Positions 16,006 to 61,900 of a stretch of DNA of 64,000 bases are shown piece after piece. The DNA comes from Mobula hypostoma (lineage: Eukaryota): positions 171,246,001-171,310,000 of the forward strand of contig NC_086097.1 of the NCBI RefSeq assembly GCF_963921235.1. The letters are read 5' to 3'. Made by a program: the position numbers and the translations under genes. A model generated the notes under the pieces. The model searched no databases. It had not been told where the DNA came from and saw only the letters and a program-made list of their open reading frames with translations. Position 1 is the stretch's first letter, and every line of letters starts with the position of its first letter.

Positions 16006-17400
16006 TTTTTTTTTAATAGTAAGCTGGCAACTTTTAAAACTCCCCCTAGGCATCAAGAAGTTTTCTAGCAAAATAGTTACTGGCAACAAACCCAAAGTAG
16101 TTCTGCGGATTCGGCAAAAAAAATAGGTTGGTTTCAAAATTAGGTCACAATAATTAGGAGCATAAATTAAGTGCTGCTTTTCTAACTTTGCAATAATGAC
16201 TGTTATTCAATAGTATTTAATTGGCTGCCTGAATTTTTGAGATGTAAGAGGCACTAAGCAGAACGTTTATTCTCACTGACATATGTCATGAAATTCAATG
16301 TTTTGTGCAGCAACACAGTGGAAAACATTTTAAAAATTACTGTCATTTACAATGTCCTATTGTTTACTTAGATCAATACTTAACTTTTAAGATAGCGTTT
16401 CAGATTTCTGGGTCACTGAGATCGCTACTGGGAAGGTTTGAACTGTACAAAAAAGGTGAGCCATATCTTAACTTGGGGGCCCCAATATTCTTGTGGGTAA
16501 GTTTTCTAGAGCTGTTGGGGAGGGTTTAAACTAATTTGGCAGAGGGATGGGAACTGGAGTGATAGGGTTGAAGATGGGGCAGTTAGTGTACAAGTTAATG
16601 GATTATGTATTGAGACTGAGGAAGGACAGGCAGATCATGGGGCAAAATTGCAGTCAGTGGGATGAGTTCTATGAAATTCTATGAAACACCATGGGGGGAA
16701 AACAAAAAGGGTGGTAAATACAGTACTAAAGATGTTACATTTGAATGGATGCAGTATATGGAATATAATAGATGATCCTGTGGTGCATTTAGAGATGGGC
16801 AGCTACGACACATGGACATCACTGCGTCATGACTAAAATAACATCATAATTGGGAGCTTAACGTCCAAGGATACACATTGTATTGAATGGACAGGCAGGT
16901 AGCTCTGTTGGTAGAGAATTAATCAAATCCTTTGAAAGAGGTGATGTAAGATCAGAAGATGTGGAAGCTTTGTGGGCAGAGTTAAGAAACTGCAAGGGTA
17001 AAGAGACTCTGATGAGAGTTAGTTATACAGACCTCTGAACCGTAGTCAGGGTGTGAGATGTAAATTAAAATGGGATATAGAAAATGTATGTAATAAAGGC
17101 AGTGTTACAATAGCCATGGGGATTTCAATATGCAGACAGATTGAGAAAATCTGGGTGGTGCTGGATCCCAAGAAGGGAAATTTGTAGAATGTCTGAGCTA
17201 GAGCGGTTTGTGGTTGAACCCACTACGGGAAAGGTATTTCTGGATTGGATGTTCTGTAAGGAACACAATTTTATTAGGGAGCTTAAGGTAAAGGACCCTC
17301 AGGTGTCAGTGATTGTAATATAATAGTATTCACACTACAGCTTAAGAGGGAGAAGCTAAAGTCAGATGTATCAGTATTACAGTGGAGTAAAGGGAATTAT

Positions 17401-18677
17401 GCCTTTGCAATTCGCCTACCGAAGCAACAGATCAATGGCAGATGCCATCTCTCTGGCCCTACTTTCCTCTTTAGAACACCTGGAGAATAAAGACGCATAT
17501 GTAAGGCTCCTTTTCATTGACTACAGCTCTGTCTTTAATACCATCATTCCAAATAAACTGATTCCTAAGCTCTGGAACCTGGGTCTTAGCACTCAGATCT
17601 GCAGCTGGATCTTCAACTTCCTCACAGACAGGACCCAGGCTCTAAAAATAGGGGACAAGCTCTCCTCTACAATAAATCTGAGCACCGGTGCCCCACAAGG
17701 CTGTGTACTCAGCCCCCTGCTGTACTCACTGTACACCCATGATTGTGTAGCCAAGTTTCCATCGAACTCAATATACAAGTTTGCTGATGACACCACAATT
17801 GTAGGCCGTATCTCGGGTAATGGTGAGTTTGAGTACAGAGAGGAAATTAAGAACCTGGTGGCATGGTGTGAAGACAATAACCTATCCCTCGACATCGGCA
17901 AGATGAAGGAATTGGTTGTTGACTTCAGAAGGATTAGTGGACTGCACGACCCCATTTACATCGGTGATGCGCAAGTGAAACAGGTCAAAAGCTTTAAGTT
18001 CCTCAGGGTCAATATCACAAATGACCTGACTTGGTCCAACCAAGCAGAGTCCACTGCCAAGAAGGCCCACCAGTGCCTTTACTTCCTGAGAAAGCTAAAG
18101 AAATTTGGCCTGTCCCCTAAAACCTTCACTAATTTTTATAGATGCACCGTAGAAAGCATTCTTCTAGGGTGCATCACAACCTGGCATGGAAATTGTCCTG
18201 TCCAAGACTGGAAGAAACTGCAGAAGATCGTGAACACAGCCCAGCACATCACACAAACCAATCTTCCATCCTTGGACTCACTTTACACTGCACGCTGTCG
18301 GAGCAGTGCTGCCAGGATAATCAAGGACACGACCCACCCAGCCAACACACTTTTTGTCCCTCTTCCCTCTGGGAGAAGGTTCAGAAGTTTGAAGACTCGT
18401 ACAGCCAGATTTGGGAACAGCTTCTTTCCAACTGTGATAAGATTGCTGAATGGTTCCTGACCCGGATCTGGGCTGTACTCTCCAAATATCCGGACCTGCC
18501 TCTCGGTTTTTTTGCACTACCTTACTTTCCCTTTTCAATTTTCTATTCATGATTTATAATTTAAATTTTTACTATTTACTATCGATTTGTATTCCAGGGA
18601 GCGCGAAGCGCAGAATCAAATATCGCTGTGATGATTGTACGCTCTAGTATCAATTGTTTGGCCACAATAAAGTAAAG
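17401..18677 (+). mobile_element. Young 5'-truncated Rex1/Babar LINE with an uninterrupted RT frame
   Basis: ORF to 18460: [58 protein letters not shown] and (GTAAA)n tail; CR1 resumes at tacagaggc. Confidence 0.93.
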
Positions 18678-33461: not shown

Positions 33462-34365
33462 CTTTACTTTACTTTATTGTCGCCAGACAATTGATATTAG
33501 AGCGTACAATCATCACAGCAATATTTGATTCTGCGCTTTGCATTCCCTGGATTACAAATCAATAGTAAATATTAAAAATTTAAATTATAAATCATAAATA
33601 GAAAATAGAAAAGGGAAAGTAAGGTAGAGCAAAAAGAAACCGAGAGGCAGATCTGGATATTTGGAGGGTACGGCCCAGATCCAGGTCAGGATCCGTTCAG
33701 CAGTCTTATCACAGTTGGAAAGAAGCTGTTCCCAAATCTGGCTGTATGAGTCTTCAAGCTCCTGAGCCTTCTCCTGGAGGGAAGTGGGATGAAAAGTGTG
33801 TTGGCTGGGTGGGTCGTGTCCTTGATTATCCTGGCAGCACTGCTCCGACAGCGTGCGGAGTAAAGTGAGTCCAGGATGGAAGATTGATTTGTGTGATGTG
33901 CTGCGCTGTGTTCACAATCTTCTGCAGCTTCTTCCGGTCGTGGACAGGACAACTTCCATACCAAGTTGTGATGCACCATAGAAGAATGTTTTCTACGGTG
34001 CATCTATAAAAATTAGTGAGGGTTTTAGGGGACAGGCCAAATTTCTTTAGCTTTCTCAGGAAGTAAAGGCTCTGGTGGGCCTTCTTGGCAGTGGACTCTG
34101 CTTGGTTGGACCAAGTCAGGTCATTTGTGATATTGACCCCGAGGAATTTAAAGCTTTTGACCTGTTCCACTTGCGCACCACTGATGTAAATGGGGTCGTG
34201 CGGTCCGCTACTCCTTCTGAAGTCAACAACAAATTCCTTTGTCTTGCTAACGTTGAGGGATAGGTTATTGTCTTCGCACCATGCCACCAGGTTCTTAATT
34301 TCCTCTCTGTATTCAAACTCGTTATTACCCGAGATACGGCCGACAATTGTTGTGTCATCAGCAAA
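33462..34365 (-). mobile_element. Young Rex1/Babar copy, same subfamily as 17401-18677
   Basis: [36 protein letters not shown] nearly identical to the other copy; same 3' UTR and (GTAAA)n tail; 5'-truncated at FADD. Confidence 0.92.
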
Positions 34366-35344
34366 TCTTGCTGAATCTTCACAAACTCCTAAGGGAGTAG
34401 GGGTACTGCCACGCTTTCTTCGTGATTGCATTTATTGCAGGGCCCAAGACAGGTCCTCTGAAGTAATAACACTGAGGAACTTAAAGTTGCTTAGCCGCTC
34501 CACCTCTGATTCTCCGATGAAGACTGGCTCATAGATTTCTGATTTCCTTCTCCTGATGTCAATAATCAGCTCCTTGGTCAAGCTGACACTGTCAAATTGT
34601 TGTGGCATTACTCAGCCAAATTTTAAATCTCTCTGTCTTATATGCTGATTCATCACCACCTTTGATTCGGTCTATGACAGTGATGTCATTAGCAAACTTG
34701 AATATCACTTTGGAGCTGTAATTAGCCACACACTCATATGTGTAAGGCGAGTAGAACAGGGGCTCAGCACACAGCCTCGTGGTGCATCTGTGCTGATGGA
34801 CATTGTGGAGGGGATGTTGTTGCCAATCCAATCTGACTGGGGTCTGCAAGAGAGGAAATCAAGGATCCAATTGCACAAGGAGGTATTGTGGCCAAGGTCT
34901 TGAAGCATACTGATTGGTTTTGATGGGATGATGGTACTGAATGCCGAGCTGTAGTCAATAGAGATCTTGATGTGTGCAGCTTTGCTGTCTAGATGTTTCA
35001 GGATTGAGTGAAGAGTCAGTGCAATTACATCTGCTGGAGATCTGTTACTCTGGTAAGCAAATTGGAGCAGTTCCAAGTCGCTTCTCAGGCAGTTGATACA
35101 TTTCATTATTACCCTCTCAAAACACTTCATCACTGTGGATGTAAGTACTACTGGACCATAATTATTGAGGCAGGATACCACGTCCTTCTTAGGCGCGCGT
35201 ATAATTGAATCCTGCATAAAGCAGGTAGGTACCTCAGACTGCTAAAGGGAGAGAGTTTAGAGGTCTCAGGGAACACTCCAGCCAATTGATCAGCATACAT
35301 TTTTAGTGCTTGGCCAGGTTCCCAATCTGGGCTGGATTCAGGAT

Positions 35345-53377: not shown

Positions 53378-53976
53378 CATGACACAGGACCGCAGAGATA
53401 TTCCATCACAGGCATGACCGGCATAGGGTCATGTAGTCACGATTTACGCAGCACAGAAACAGGCCCTTCAGTTCAGCATTCCTGTGCTGACCATCATGTA
53501 TCAATATTACAAGGTTACAAATACCAGATTTATATTGGCCATATACAGTACATAGGAATGAACCCCCATAAAGTAATCAAACACCACTGTCTTGTAATAT
53601 CACAGGCTGCCAGTTTCACCATGGGACACGACTTCAAGGAGTTGCTTTAGAAATTTACAACCTGTTGATGTGGTGATATCACGTGTCATGTGTAAGAACG
53701 TGATCGGACAGAGTTCGGAGCATGCTCAGAAATGACAGAATGATCTGGAAACTTGTATGTTAAAAACGTGGTTGCTGTTGCTGTTGTAAATAAAAGTTCT
53801 AGTTTTAATTCTTCCAGAATATGGTTTGTTCTTAGTAACCCACGGTACGTGTAAAGAACACAACATGGTGTCAGAAGTCAGTCTGGAAGAATAATTTGTT
53901 TCGCTAACACAGGAGAAGCGAAGATAATTGAAAAAAAGAGTACAAACTTTTTCATTATTTGCTAACAGCTTTAAAA

Positions 53977-55599
53977 ATGGAACTTTTGCAACCCCCATCG
54001 ACGCTTCAGCTGACTGGAAACGTAGCTGAAAACTGGAAAAGATTTAAACAACGTTTTGAAATTTATTCATCGGCGATCAGAGCAGATAATAAAATGGAGA
54101 AAACAAAAGCTGCACTTCTACTCCATGTGATAGGGGACGATACAATTGAGGTATATAACCATTTTACTTTTTAAAATGGAGATAATTTGAACCTAAAAGC
54201 GATAATCGACAAATTTGACGCATTTTGTATACCAAAGTGTAATGTGACGTATGAGAGCTATAAATTTTTCAAATGTCAGCAGAGACCTGGTCAAACAATT
54301 GATCAATTTGTTATGGAGCTGAGAAACCACATTAAGAATTGCGAGGTTGTAGAGCTTACAGATTCTCTCATTAAGGGCAGAATTGTTCGCGGCATTCTGG
54401 ATAATGGTCTGAGAGAAAAACTGTTAGAACAAGATTTGAATTTGGAAAAGATTGCGGCACTCTATAAAGCTTCTGAGACCGTGACGTCACAGACTAAAGA
54501 GCTTTTTATTGAGAACTGCAACGTACATGCTGTGCGCTAACATATTAGAAAAACTAATAAAACGGCAACAGAACCGACAGAAAACAAGACGTCATCTGAA
54601 AGAAAAAAATTTTGTGATCGCTGTGGGCGGGAGCACTGACCTAAAAAGCGTCCAACATATCAGAAAATGTAAAACAACTGTGGTAAGAGTAATCATTTTT
54701 CATGCTGTTGCAGAAGTAGAAAGGAAATAAAACACGTAAATGCAGTGCTTGAAAATGAACGCGAAGAGTTTTACATAGATGTGCTTTGTGAAAACAAACA
54801 AAGTAAGAATGACTGGACTATGCCATTACAAGTGAACCAAAACAATATTCTGTTTAAACTGGATACTGGAGCACAAGTAAATGTTCTTGGAAAATCTGAG
54901 TTTAATGCATTAAAGACAAGACCAAAGTTACATCAGACAAATATAAAAGTGACTGAGTATTCAAGTGTAGACATTCCAGTTAAAGGAGCATGTGTGGCAA
55001 AATTATCACACAAAAATATTGAGCACATACTTTCATTTGTGGTAGTGCCAAAAAATGTACAGTCAATATTGGGTTTATCTGCCTGTGAGAGACAGAATTT
55101 AGTGAAAAGAGTTTTGGTCCTGGATAGTGACACAGAGTCAGAATACAGTGACTCAATAAAAGAGAATATAAAAGTAGTAGCTGCAGTGTCAGAAACGACC
55201 AAACAGAAGGCAATTGATGATGTGAAAAAGCAAAGGCAGGAGGAGGTTGCTTCAAGGCAAGCGATGATGAAAGAGACACTGAGAGAATATGAGATTCAGT
55301 TTCATCACCGTCTAGAGCAAGAATGCTCACAGTGGGCACAGTATAAGGAAGCAGTGGAATGTGAATTGACTGATCTAAGGAGACATTTGTCTGAAGGACA
55401 AGGAGATGAAGTAAAGATACAAGACAAAATGAACACATGGACACAGAAAGCTACAGTACTTGAAGAAGTACAACCCAGATCATACATGGTCCAAACAGAA
55501 GAAGGAGCAGTGTTAAGAAGGAATTGCAAAGACTTTAAGAAAGAGCCAGCTTCAGCGTTTCAGTTAACTGATGCAGACCAGATGAAACACAAGAACTAG
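53977..55599 (+). pseudogene. Single-frame Gag-protease-RABEP1-integrase-tail fusion with four premature stops in gag
   Basis: MELLQPPSTLQLTGNVAENWKRFKQRFEIY (Gag); knuckles CDRCGREH and NNCGKSNHF..CC; FKLDTGAQVNVL (protease); GDEVKIQD..W..ATVLEEVQPRSYMVQTEEGAVLRRN (integrase C-terminal tail); stops at 54172, 54538, 54637, 54670; no frameshift. Confidence 0.88.
55162..55401 (+). pseudogene. RABEP1: Captured fragment of the Rabaptin-5 N-terminal coiled coil (80 codons)
   Basis: ENIKVVAAVSETTKQKAIDDVKKQRQEEVASRQAMMKETLREYEIQFHHRLEQECSQWAQYKEAVECELTDLRRHLSEGQ aligns without gaps to human RABEP1 as I recall it: ENIKAIATVSENTKQEAIDEVKRQWREEVASLQAVMKETVRDYEHQFHLRLEQERTQWAQYRESAEREIADLRRRLSEGQ (~aa 86-165). 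Confidence 0.93.
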
Positions 55600-56044
55600 A
55601 AGGTCTACTCGTGTTCGTAAACCCCTAGAGAGACTGATAGAGTCATGTTAATTTATGTGTTTGTTCTGATCAATGTTGCTAATTGTTTTTCTTTTTAAGG
55701 AAAGGAAGATGTGGTGATATCACATGTCATATGTAAGAACGTGATTGGACAGAGTTCGGAGCATGCTCAGAAATGACAGAATGATCTGGAAACTTGTATG
55801 TTAAAAACGTGGTTGCTGTTGCTGTTGTAAATAAAAGTTCTAGTTTTAATTCTTCCAGAATATGGTTTGTTCTTAGTAACCACGGTACGTATAAAGAACA
55901 CAACAGTTGATACCTGTTCAATGATACTCGATCAAAGAATGTAACATACACTGATAGTTCAAGCTCATCAAAATTAGGCACAGAGTGGGGGATATCCTGG
56001 TTTTGTACCATTGCAACTAGGTAGAGAAAGACAATAAATAAATG

Positions 56045-56402
56045 TTCAGGCAGCGCCTCAAGAAGTTATCATTAAGAACCTTCACTATCTGGATTACGCC
56101 ATCTTCTCATTACTACCAGTGTGGAGGAGGTACAGGAGTCTAAAGACCCAAACTCAACATTTTAGGAACAGCTTCTTCCCTCCCCACTCAGATTTTTGAA
56201 TGTTCCATGATCTCATGACCATGATTCTTCTTTCCTTTTTTCCCCTCTTTTCTTCACTATTCCTCTTTTGCAGTACTTATTTACTTGTATTTTAATTGTA
56301 ATTGATAGTAATTTATTATGCCTTGTATTGTACTGCTGCCACAAAAACAAGAAATTTCACAATTTTGTCAGTGATAACAGACCTAATTCTGACTCTGATT
56401 CT
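56045..56402 (+). mobile_element. Rex1/Babar 3' fragment
   Basis: ggaggaggtacaggagtctaaagaccc..ttaggaacagcttcttcccc..(TTCTGA)n tail. Confidence 0.7.
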
Positions 56403-56692: not shown

Positions 56693-58484
56693 ATGAGTTT
56701 GAAGGTATTGGAAAAGCCTAAAAGAACTCATAAGGGTGTTACACTTAGCGTAAAACTAGACATAATTAAGCGTTTCAATCATGGTGAACGAAGTAAGGAC
56801 ATTGTCCGCGCGTTGAACTTGCACCATTCGCACTATTTATACGCAGAGAGAAAAAATCTTGAAAGCTGCCGATGTTACTGTTGGTTCTGCTCGTAGCAAA
56901 GTGGTCTCTCGTAGTCGGCATCCAGTAATGGATAAAATGGAAAGTCTATTGCTTGAGTGGATTGATGGGTGTACAAAACATGGTGTTCCTTTAAGTTATC
57001 TTATACTTGAGAAATCAGTCAGTCTTTTTAATAAGCTGAAACAGAAAGCGCTGGCCGATGGTGATGAAAGTATTGCAAAAGTGGAATTTAAAGGTAGTTA
57101 CGGGTGGTTTGATCGGTTTCTGAGACGAGGGCAGCTTCATAGTTTAACGGTTACAGGAGAGAGTGTTTCGGCTGATACTGAAGCTGCTGAAAGGTTCCCA
57201 GCAGAACTGAAGAAAATATTACAGAAGGTGGTTATTCATATAAGCAAGTGTTTAACTGTGGTGAAACTGCAATTTATTGGAAAAAATTGCCGAGTAAGAC
57301 ATTTATTTTGAAAGAAGAAAAGCAGGCTAAGGGACACAAGGTATCAAAGGACAGGTTTACCCTAATGCCTATTATTAACGCCACTAAGCCTCTACTAGTG
57401 TACCATTCAGAAAATCCGAGGGCACTTAAAGGCGTTGATAAGAAACCACTTCCCGTTGTGTCTCGTTCACATCCAAGCAGTTGGTACACCCAAGTGCTTT
57501 TTTTCTGAGTACATGAGCAGATGCGTTAGTCCTTTTGTTGAAAAATACTGCAGAGAAAATAACCTCCATAGTAGGTGTCTTGTGATTGTCGATAATTGTG
57601 CTGCTCATCCGCCTGGCATTACCGAGTATGGCGGTAACATTCATGTTGCGTTCTTACCGCCGAATACGACATCGTTGCTGCAGCCGTGCGACCAAGGCCT
57701 AATAGCCACAATTAAGGCTTACTATGCGCAAAATGTGATGCGTTTTATTGTAAGTGCTATTGATAGAGAGGGCAACTCTGAAGCATCTTTGCAAGAGATC
57801 TGGAAAGACTACAATATAAAACTGGCAATCACCAGCATTGGAGATGCTCTTGATAGGCTAACAGTCTCGATGAGAAATGGCGTTTGGAGGAAGCTATGTC
57901 CCAAAGCAGTGAACGATTTTAAAGGCTTCGAACCATCGACAATGAAAACGACAATAGTGAGCTTGGCTAAGGAGGCAGGGTTTGTGGAAGTTGACGAAGA
58001 TGATGTTGAAGAGGTTTTGGCATCCCATGACCAAGAATTGACAGATGAAGAGCTGATGCAATTGCAAGAGGAAAGGATAACAATCGAAACTGAACGCAGT
58101 AGTGAAAATGAAGTCGTCCAGGGACTGAACGTGAAGCAGTTGCATGAGATTTTCGCTGTGATTGACAGCACTGCAATGATTGCAGAAAAGTATGACTTTA
58201 ATTTTGAAAGGTCATGTAGGTTTAGGGCAGGTTTGCAGGATGTTTTGAGTGCTTACAAAGAACTCTATGATCTAAAAATGCGCGAGGCTCAGCAGTCAAG
58301 TATACTGTCGTTTTTCAAGCCTTGCACATCAGCCACAGCAGACGACGAACCTCAACCTTCGACACCGAGGCAGGCAGACATAGAAGAAGATGACCTGGCT
58401 GCCCTATTGGAAATAGACTACGATGAGATGACACCCCAGTCTCCTCTACGTCCCACCACCCCAATTTCCGATGACTCAGCCTAA
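56693..58484 (+). pseudogene. Frameshifted Tigger transposase (CENP-B-type HTH plus DDE_1)
   Basis: VTLSVKLDIIKRF; MESLLLEWI; FKGSYGWFDRFLRR; VFNCGETAIYWKKLP; LVIVDNCAAHP; FLPPNTTSLLQPCDQGLIATIKAYY; spread over four ORFs. Confidence 0.9.
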
Positions 58485-59589: not shown

Positions 59590-61900
59590 GTCAACTCTGG
59601 GGACTTATCCACCCTAATTTATCTCAAGACAGAAAAAAACCCTCCTCCTCTGTAATCGCATAGGATCTATGACCCTGCTGCTGCATGCCTCACTTCAAGA
59701 GACTCAGTGTCCACCTCCCAAGTAAATACAGCTGCAAAGAATGCATTTAAGATCTCTCCCGTCTCTTTCAGCTCCACACATAGTGTTACAGTACGCACCT
59801 GACTGTGCTAGTCTCTAGGGTTTAGACGCTCCGATACTCCAGAGTATGGATAGCTGGCACGGCCCATTTAAAGATCCTGGCTTGCTCCGCTAGTTGGCGG
59901 GTATGTTCTGGTGCCAAGGTTTGCATATCCAAAGAGCTCAGATTCAGTGCCTAACTGTCAGCTGAACTTTGATTCAGTCTACGATTGCATGTAGGATTTC
60001 TTATCCTTTTGGATTCTTGTCTCGTCTCATCAGGTTCCCATCTAGCCTCTAGTCAAGAACCCTGCTCTCATCTCAGTCTCAAAACCTTTTCTCGATTGTA
60101 GTCTTGGATACAGCAGCATTTGGGTCCTTATCAGCCTTGCCTAGGCCTCTTGTCACAGCATAAATTACCACTCTGATCTTCCAGAGGACCAATTTTGATC
60201 CTTTCAATCTTTTTGCTCTTAATATATCTGTAGAAGTCCTTTGGATTATCCTTCACTTTGTCTGCTAGAATAACCTCATGCCTTCTTTTAGCCTTCTTGA
60301 TTCTTTCAAAAGTGTTCTCTTGCATGTCTTGAGGTATTCCTCAAATGCCTCATTTATTCCTACCTGCCTATAGCTGCTATGCACTTCCTTCTTTTTCTTA
60401 GCACGCTCTCAATATCTGTCAGGCACTAAGGTTTCCGTAAACCTGCCATCCTTGCCATTTATTTTGACAAGAACATACAAACTGTGTTCTCAAAATTTTA
60501 CTTTTGAAAGCCACCCACTAACCAACGAGCCCCAAAACACTGAGCTGCCAGTTCTGTCCCTCCTGCAACCAAGTTTCAATAATGGCTACAATGTCGTAAT
60601 TCCACAAGCTGATCCATTCCTAACCTCATCCACCCTCGTCCATGTATTGAAACATCCACAGCTCAGAACATTAGCCTCACCATGCTTGACCTTTTGATTT
60701 CTATCTTTGTATATAGGGTTAACGACATTTTTATCCCTGTTATCTGTTTTGGCACTCTGGTTCCAACCCTCTGCAACTTAAAACCCCATGCAGCACTAGC
60801 AAACCTTCTCACAGGGATACTAGAGCCCTCCTGTTTAGGTGCAAACCGTCCCTTCCGTACAGGTCCCACTTTCTCTGCAAGAGAGCTCAATGATCCAAAG
60901 ATGAAAAGCCCTCAAACTCCTCAGCCACATGTTAAATTGTATGATTTTTCTACTTCTGGCCTCACTAGCATGTGGCATGGGTAGCAATCCTGAGATCACA
61001 ACACTGGAAGTCCTGTCCTTTAACTTAGCACCTAGGGCCTTGAACTCATTTTGTAACTCACTTTTGTCACCTGTCTTACCCATGTCAATGAAGGCGACGT
61101 GGACCACGACCTCTGGCTGCTCACCCTCCCAATTAAAAATGTTGCGGACTCAATCCAAGACATCCGACCCTGGCACCCTGGGGCAACATACCATCAAAGA
61201 ATCTTGTTCTCATTTACAGAACCTCCTTTCTGTTCTCCTAATGAACGAATCCCCTATCATTTCAGCTCGCCTCTTCTCTCACATTTCCCTTCCAAGCCAC
61301 AGCATCAGACTCAGTGTCAAAGACCTGTCCACTGTAACCTCCTCTGCAAGGTCATTTCCCCTCAAAAGGTTCCAAAGCAGTATTCCTGTTATTGAGGGGA
61401 AAGGCTATAGGGGCACTCTGCATCGTCTGCCTCTTCCCTTTCCCCATCCTGATGGTCACCTAGTTACCTGTGTCCTGCATCTTGGGTGTAACTACTGCAC
61501 CTCCTTGTATGCCCTGTCTATCAGGCTCCCGAATGAACCAGTTCCAACTCCTTAACGTGGTCTGTTAGAAGCTGGAGCTGGATGCCTTCTCACATCATGC
61601 ATTTCAGTATCCAGCCTGGCATCACCATACTCTAAATGTGCAACAAGAAAGAAAGAATAAATAAATAACAAAACAAAATCTACTTCCAGCCTATGCTTCT
61701 TCTAGCAGAAGCCTCGATGAGCAAAAGCCTAAACTCTATCCTTTAACACCATCCCACTCACACTTTGCTGAAACCTAATTTCTTTTTATTGGACCTTGCA
61801 AGTGCCTGATTATGCGCAATCCAATGTCTCCTCAGGAACTGTTGTGCGCAAAATGTGCTGACTATCCCCACTCACTTCTTTTAAACTGTCTCTCCCCCTA
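59590..61900 (-). mobile_element. CR1 LINE 5' half with deletions (esterase ORF1 and ORF2 pieces)
   Basis: VVVHVAFIDMGK..VVISGLLPMPHAS (60835-61107); KVKDNPKDFYRYIKSKK..IGPLEDQSG (60131-60325). Confidence 0.85.
59784..60157 (+). mobile_element. Probable solo LTR inserted in CR1
   Basis: TGTTACA...TGTCACA termini; TTTAAA TATA-like box; gcatttgggtcc near the 3' end; CR1 resumes across the insert; flanks acatag/gcataa imperfect. Confidence 0.6.

Follow-up and report, generated by a model that had tools for sequence, protein, structure and literature searches.

Ray gypsy-like retrotransposons carrying pieces of spliced host mRNA in place of pol, and a probable role for an unbroken reading frame in their spread

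The window analysed here is a 64,000-nt stretch of the Mobula hypostoma genome (NC_086097.1, positions 171,246,001 to 171,310,000, forward strand), of which positions 53669-55905 are occupied by a 2,237-nt LTR element with the following parts:

53664..53668, no strand: left TSD, GTTGA, forming a perfect 5-bp pair with the right copy at 55906-55910
53669..53865, plus strand: 5' LTR, TG...CA, 197 nt, from LTR comparison and the TSD
53866..53878, plus strand: PBS, directly 3' of the 5' LTR, presumably for a tRNA-Leu primer; the same 13-mer is present in 26 of 86 loci
53977..54800, plus strand: gag (capsid, zinc knuckle and linker), a single frame broken by four stops
54823..55092, plus strand: aspartic protease (Pfam gag-asp_proteas, E 7e-6)
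55159..55164, plus strand: left junction of the window copy, a private 222-nt in-frame deletion
55162..55406, plus strand: captured piece of spliced RABEP1 mRNA, the end of exon 3 and most of exon 4
55399..55406, plus strand: 8-nt microhomology at the right switch point, present both in host exon 4 and in the integrase sequence of relatives that retain pol
55407..55650, plus strand: integrase C-terminal tail, in which a deletion shifts the last codons out of frame, with a stop at 55597-55599
55697..55709, plus strand: polypurine tract, preceding the 3' LTR
55710..55905, plus strand: 3' LTR, 196 nt, from LTR comparison and the TSD

Elsewhere in the window lie LINE-type RT fragments with a Pfam ALKBH8_N tail (17360-18460, plus strand, and 33826-34431, minus strand) and, 1.5 kb past the 3' end of the element, a 361-aa open frame (57399-58484, plus strand) whose DDE_1 domain (E 1e-14) marks it as part of a pogo/Tigger-like transposase. 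No Pfam match at E 0.001 was obtained for two further open frames, of 432 aa (201-1499) and 216 aa (60905-61555), both on the plus strand.

An initial annotation of this DNA had described a complete LTR element lacking RT, RNase H and the integrase core. The LTRs, GTTGA duplication, PBS and purine tract were all confirmed, as was the loss of pol: aligned to P0150, a relative whose single ORF encodes a full Gag-Pol, it covers residues 1-398 and ~1190-1285, and the ~790 missing residues comprise RT, RNase H, and the zinc and core domains of integrase. Among full-length proteins, the element is closest to Gag-Pol of K02A2.6-like, single-ORF Ty3/gypsy type, and the domains of P0150 are collinear with those of L084, a pol-bearing family member, which gives the order gag-PR-RT-RH-IN for the parent family. 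The element is a non-autonomous Ty3/gypsy derivative, as it has LTRs, TSD, PBS and polypurine tract, but neither RT, RNase H nor an integrase core of its own.

The annotation had also proposed that the frame runs open from Gag, and that a protease-releasable Rabaptin fragment could have been encoded. Neither holds for the window copy, in which gag has stops at 54172, 54538, 54637 and 54670, mostly private to this copy, and the integrase tail carries a frameshifting deletion, so that no Gag-protease-Rabaptin polyprotein can be made. By the criterion of an intact frame it is not a domesticated retrogene, but a late, dead insertion of a decayed element. Its two LTRs have 4 differences over 196 aligned sites (2%), yet its cargo is 5.4% from the host sequence and its gag has four mostly private stops; apparently, either a decayed template was copied late, or the LTRs were homogenised or converted.

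At both LTR-flank junctions (window 53500-53713 and 55853-56100), spanning contigs come from two organisms, and the cargo region is covered by contigs of three. The spanning contigs of one organism, which may be the source, match exactly; those of the second have four differences at each junction, indicating that the same insertion is present there. A joint bypassing the whole element (53624 to 56009) was found in two runs, with a 20-nt side that makes it too weak to be called an empty site. An assembly artefact was rejected, given these spanning contigs and the hundreds of copies described below. Coverage of the cargo by one RNA run was thin, and its reads may derive from host mRNA or from DNA.

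The 80 aa at 55162-55401 had been assigned to the N-terminal coiled coil of RABEP1 without gaps, and this proved correct: they match the Pfam Rabaptin family (E 1.9e-35), and are 90% identical to Mobula RABEP1 in an ungapped alignment and 89% identical to the Hypanus and Hemitrygon proteins, which places the host among the myliobatiform rays. The whole piece (55162..55406) is a coiled coil corresponding to residues 91-172 of Mobula RABEP1. Searched against PDB sequences, the 80 aa gave nine matches, all with E > 0.2 and none a Rabaptin chain. In a pattern search of the genome, host RABEP1 exons 3 (204 nt) and 4 (161 nt) gave one match each, separated by 9,063 nt on C71, and the RABEP1 and SH3KBP1 exons of the host genome translate like Mobula's. 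The insert aligns gap-free to exons 3 and 4 at 227 of 240 nt, across the splice at window 55273/55274, which is exactly where the annotation had placed an intron (in the E123 codon). Since the 9,063-nt intron is absent from the element at this position, the cargo came from spliced mRNA, as had been proposed. Neither a poly(A) tail nor a TSD of its own, which are hallmarks of L1 activity, was seen on inspection of the cargo sequence.

Both cargo junctions of the window copy are in frame, as annotated. The proposal of two template switches at microhomologies stood as regards the switches, although not in its details. On the left, the three shared nucleotides (GAG) belong to a later, private deletion of 222 nt, which took out the beginning of RT along with the initial 30 codons of the RABEP1 cargo; a genome-wide search for this junction at 55162 returned the window copy only, so that the copy count suggested for it yields one. 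In most copies the RABEP1 cargo begins at the start of exon 3, and seven loci retain the original left switch, in which the RT start is joined to exon 3 via a 6-nt microhomology. On the right, exon 4 rejoins the integrase tail through a microhomology of eight nucleotides, rather than the four proposed. The chance expectations per junction are 0.0022 for the 6-nt and 0.00017 for the 8-nt microhomology, and the sequence of L084 provides the donor side of the junctions. A spliced RABEP1 piece thus replaced the RT-RNase H-integrase core at these two microhomologies.

The original left junction lies at most 2 nt from the exon 3 acceptor, as would be expected had capture followed the route of retroviral oncogenes, with an element in RABEP1 intron 2 being read through and spliced to exon 3, and a single recombination restoring the 3' end. 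However, the retro side of this junction has no GT splice donor, for which reason capture by splicing was rejected, and it shares the 6-nt microhomology with the exon start, making this route very improbable.

The RABEP1 carriers are an amplified family, rather than the product of a single event. A DNA search with the RABEP1 insert gave 205 candidates, and all 40 of those scored matched. Allowing up to three mismatches, with a reversed-pattern control of zero, the intron-less RABEP1 junction occurs at 161 places genome-wide, as the annotation's suggestion of amplification would have it. The equivalent junctions of two further cargoes occur at 327 places for SH3KBP1, recombinants included, and 82 for SLU7, the RABEP1 and SH3KBP1 places being overlapping sets; 252 places have native integrase where the right switch occurred. 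Copies also differ in their TSDs: among 19 other loci with an LTR-size self-repeat, nine, including L084, have a 5-bp TSD (at most one mismatch), all different. The LTR pairs of other copies are 82-94% identical (6-18% divergent), one non-LTR repeat aside.

Mobilisation in trans by a partner with the same LTR, also envisaged in the annotation, is supported by the existence of pol-bearing relatives of the same LTR type, of which L084 has a TSD. The Gag-Pol match of L084 extends to within ~60 nt of the 3' LTR, too short a gap to accommodate env. Decayed pol-bearing relatives are many in the genome, and 49 were scored; a guessed pattern for the RT continuation of pol-bearing copies had no match in the genome, these relatives having been found by other searches. 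It is almost certain that the cargo was captured from spliced mRNA and that the carriers were amplified in trans.

The additional cargoes come from two more host genes. In many copies, ~120 extra bases encode the C-terminal coiled coil of SH3KBP1/CIN85 (PDB 2n64 and 5abs, E 3e-11), and a longer piece in L043 holds a proline-rich stretch and the coiled coil, 97% identical to Mobula. The introns between the host SH3KBP1 exons on C18 (L074, 126-376 and 1464-1527) are missing in the elements. A sister family without RABEP1 has this cargo in place of pol, and was represented by 29 fetched loci (L042-L070). The third cargo gave a weak match to human SLU7 (E 0.002), then confirmed on host exons: it matches two host SLU7 exons on C21 (L085 and L086), with introns lost, at 86-90% identity to the host exon, lower than for the RABEP1 and SH3KBP1 cargoes. 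A guessed pattern for the SLU7 acceptor had no match, and the source was settled by other searches. One host SLU7 exon (L086, C21:67583226-67583309) is followed by GC rather than GT, likely a GC-AG intron. Three SH3KBP1-carrying matches lie within 45 kb (C1:168385116, 168424769 and 168430009), one of them inverted, which suggests local segmental duplication rather than separate insertions. The carriers fall into four groups:

Group A, which includes the window copy: RABEP1 only
Group B: RABEP1-SH3KBP1-RABEP1
Group C: RABEP1-SH3KBP1-SLU7, mostly without protease
Group D: SH3KBP1 only

A sister line thus took spliced SH3KBP1, and recombinants stack RABEP1 with SH3KBP1 and SLU7, with up to three host genes in one element. 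Most of the triple carriers (L018, L023, L024, L026, L030 and L075-L082) are without protease, and several carry a duplicate of the purine tract and LTR start ahead of the genuine 3' LTR. Two annotated proteins of Hemitrygon akajei (P0028 and P0126) are element chimeras, and as these gene models are of B and D type, the carrier forms are common to ray lineages. P0126 retains three residues absent from P0125, the Hemitrygon model of host SH3KBP1, which would fit a capture before the lineages split.

The same cargo is found in backbones that diverged long before. In pairwise codon comparisons between groups A and B, dS is 0.68 in gag, 0.25 in protease and 0.28 in the integrase tail, against 0.087 in the RABEP1 cargo, which is no more than the decay within a group. 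As judged by protease, A and D stand no farther from L084 than from one another. The simplest reading of these distances is that capture took place in the subfamily of A, D and L084, and that the cargo would later have been transferred to another by recombination between co-packaged RNAs.

The junctions themselves differ according to whether they were propagated. They were mapped on natural references in ~70 non-redundant loci, duplicate fetches having been dropped; these loci are the best matches out of several hundred. Raw mapping gave 17 shared and 23 single groups, with 16/17 and 11/23 in frame respectively, after which four groups were merged or split by eye: two SH3KBP1-to-tail groups were merged, as were two SLU7-to-tail groups, a two-locus gag deletion was split into two out-of-frame singles, and L046 was moved to the singles, giving 14 shared and 26 single. 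All 14 junction types present in at least two loci are in frame, against 12 of the 26 (46%) confined to one locus (Fisher p 0.0004). Base composition alone would place 0.42-0.56 of microhomology joins involving cargo in frame, and ~0.35 of retro-to-retro joins. Were there no selection, with frames arising by chance and codon-phased microhomology, and a few master copies being amplified by drift, then the composition range, the 46% among single-copy junctions, and the window copy, with its apparent mobilisation despite a broken gag, would all be accommodated. But 14 of 14 has a probability of 0.0002 at a null of 0.55, and of 0.0002-0.00001 across the composition nulls, and the shared set includes the retro-to-retro deletions for which the null is lowest. 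Hence chance and drift are an improbable explanation of the shared junctions, and selection for an open frame is quite likely.

What this selection would act on can be narrowed by what the groups have lost. The least decayed copies of groups A, B and D end their frame ~40-60 nt short of the 3' LTR; in group C, it stops ~190-290 nt upstream of the true 3' LTR. The integrase end motif was rejected as a requirement, since one large group (B) deleted it and terminates its frame at a new stop, and protease in cis was rejected because the SLU7 group is mostly without it. Because protease, the end motif and the cargo residues are not common needs, it is a frame running open from gag almost to the 3' end that is kept. 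The best reading is therefore that amplified lines were selected for an unbroken frame, and not for Rabaptin function. As to the cause, an early stop probably either exposes the RNA to nonsense-mediated decay, or removes a Gag that is needed in cis. For the former there is a precedent, as premature stops in the gag of Rous sarcoma virus (RSV) trigger UPF1-dependent decay according to one study (PMC2925335), and nonsense-mediated decay as the specific cause is possible, if rather doubtful. Other observations stand against the selected-frame explanation: the window copy apparently came from a broken template, unless its LTRs were homogenised, the SLU7 group ends its frame early and mostly lacks protease, and the proteins of Ty1 reportedly lack cis-preference (PMC3945221). 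The window copy suggests that the frame rule bears on amplification through many rounds rather than on any one jump.

The cargo residues themselves bear few marks of selection. Mean divergence of the cargo from host exons is 5.0% in 42 loci, in which small cargo indels comprise 15 frameshifting and 4 in-frame, and singleton changes are 105 non-synonymous and 38 synonymous. Pooling RABEP1 and SH3KBP1, changes in at least four loci (16 non-synonymous and 7 synonymous) do not differ from singletons (209 and 66; p 0.46), in a test of low power, as few changes arose while the lines replicated. Pairwise dN/dS of the cargo is mostly 0.8-1.3, near 1, again with low power; gag and protease give 0.3-0.45 between diverged groups, values that may have been inherited from helper lines by recombination. 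Within the limits of this power, the captured RABEP1 and SH3KBP1 amino acids evolve near neutrally. The exception is group C, where dN/dS is 0.61 for the RABEP1 cargo, 0.45 for SH3KBP1 and 2.1 for SLU7, the first two values being a hint of constraint on the cargo.

These group C values are among several observations that would fit selection on the captured coiled coils themselves, through Gag(-protease)-coil fusions that aid oligomerisation, entry into helper particles or contact with endosomal partners, and so outcompete plain deletion derivatives. The two main cargoes each contribute the coiled coil of an endocytic adaptor, although SLU7 is a splicing factor, and the cargo spread into diverged backbones. 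All 29 SH3KBP1-only loci retain most or all of the C-terminal coil, with several trimming the proline-rich part, but they were fetched with a coil-containing query, such that this retention is partly built in. The SH3KBP1 coil is joined in frame into the RABEP1 coil, but at 43 residues is no multiple of seven. Furthermore, the cargo is 59-69% purine, compared with 56% for the element, favouring A/G microhomology without any protein role, and dN/dS in most group pairs, the mostly non-synonymous changes that mark clades, and the likeness of shared and private changes all count against constraint. Selection on the coils is consequently judged unlikely. The same low probability attaches to its boldest form, in which the ray gypsy carriers would be a translated exon-shuffling platform, with host coils selected as Gag extensions and swapped as cassettes between diverged subfamilies, enabling pol-less elements (161 places for RABEP1, 327 for SH3KBP1) to rival native-integrase copies (252). 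Were it true, the cargo would be a tool that the parasite took from its host, rather than a passenger.

The account that we favour as probable is of a non-autonomous, K02A2.6-like, single-ORF Ty3/gypsy family with host-mRNA cargo, spread under selection for its frame. Switches would have occurred as RNA was reverse transcribed in particles where element RNA was packaged alongside host mRNA or the RNAs of other carriers; RT and integrase would have come in trans from relatives with pol. The lines that amplified, reaching hundreds of sites, would be those whose single frame, starting at gag, stayed open to near the 3' end, with the cargo acting as a frame-keeping filler rather than as a selected Rabaptin protein.

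With hundreds of copies and at least 14 shared junction types, this family offers a sequence-only test of what lets pol-less LTR elements amplify, and the suggested answer is an unbroken frame, whatever fills it. Such carriers also yield false gene models, as exemplified by the Hemitrygon "RABEP1-like" and "uncharacterized" proteins, and they are likely missed by retrocopy surveys that filter repeat-overlapping matches, as described for one such survey (PMC13320880). Hypothetically, hundreds of transposons with sense exons of RABEP1, SH3KBP1 and SLU7 might direct piRNA silencing at the host genes themselves. In a moth, silencing small RNAs reportedly arise from W-linked retrocopies of Masc (10.1101/2022.04.04.486979).

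Among known systems, the K02A2.6-like Ty3/gypsy elements of fish and amphibians (P0150 and P0152) are 57-69% identical to the ray element across gag, protease, RT start and integrase tail, but keep RT, RNase H and the integrase core where the ray element has host cargo. TR-GAG elements are non-autonomous LTR elements of plants that, like the protease-less SLU7 group, keep gag and have lost most of pol; host cargo is not known to be part of their definition. The annotation's analogy with oncogene-carrying retroviruses is weak, because there is no env, no capture of a splice donor at the left junction, and a cargo dN/dS near 1; acutely transforming retroviruses have env or an infectious helper, whereas the ray element is a gypsy backbone without env.

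The closest parallel is with the LTR-mediated retrocopies of animals, as described in the accessible portion of Tan et al. 2016 (Genome Res 26:1663, PMC5131818), four features of which were tested and found in the ray carriers. Firstly, the captured sequence is a partial spliced mRNA. Secondly, it replaces internal ORFs between two LTRs, rather than interrupting an intact element. Thirdly, there is microsimilarity at the switch points, with a median of 6 bp in that study, and 6 and 8 nt here. Fourthly, the captured piece is without a poly(A) tail or its own TSD. The same text also describes chimeras of two to four genes, and further retroposition as non-autonomous elements. It reports few insertion sites per retrocopy, however, in contrast to the 82-327 places per cargo in rays, and serial stacking in an amplifying family, transfer of cargo across backbones and the frame rule go beyond what it sets out. 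A literature search, which did not extend to supplements, Repbase, Dfam or most subscription papers, found no report of this family, of RABEP1, SH3KBP1 or SUDS3 capture in rays, or of the frame rule. Maize Bs1, as described in PMC5131818, is likewise an LTR element that holds pieces of three unlinked host genes and was re-mobilised with shared switch points, but has 1-5 copies and one of its three pieces out of frame, whereas the ray family has hundreds, with all shared junctions in frame. Crocodilian endogenous retroviruses (ERVs) with KIT-ligand or nectin3 are, like the ray carriers, vertebrate LTR elements amplified with captured host mRNA; they are retroviruses of 6-9 copies with near-complete ORFs and reported purifying selection (PMC4299795), unlike the short, near-neutral fragments in the ray gypsy elements. 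The mechanism, LTR-mediated retroposition, is therefore known, and it is the scale, the stacking and the frame rule that are the new part.
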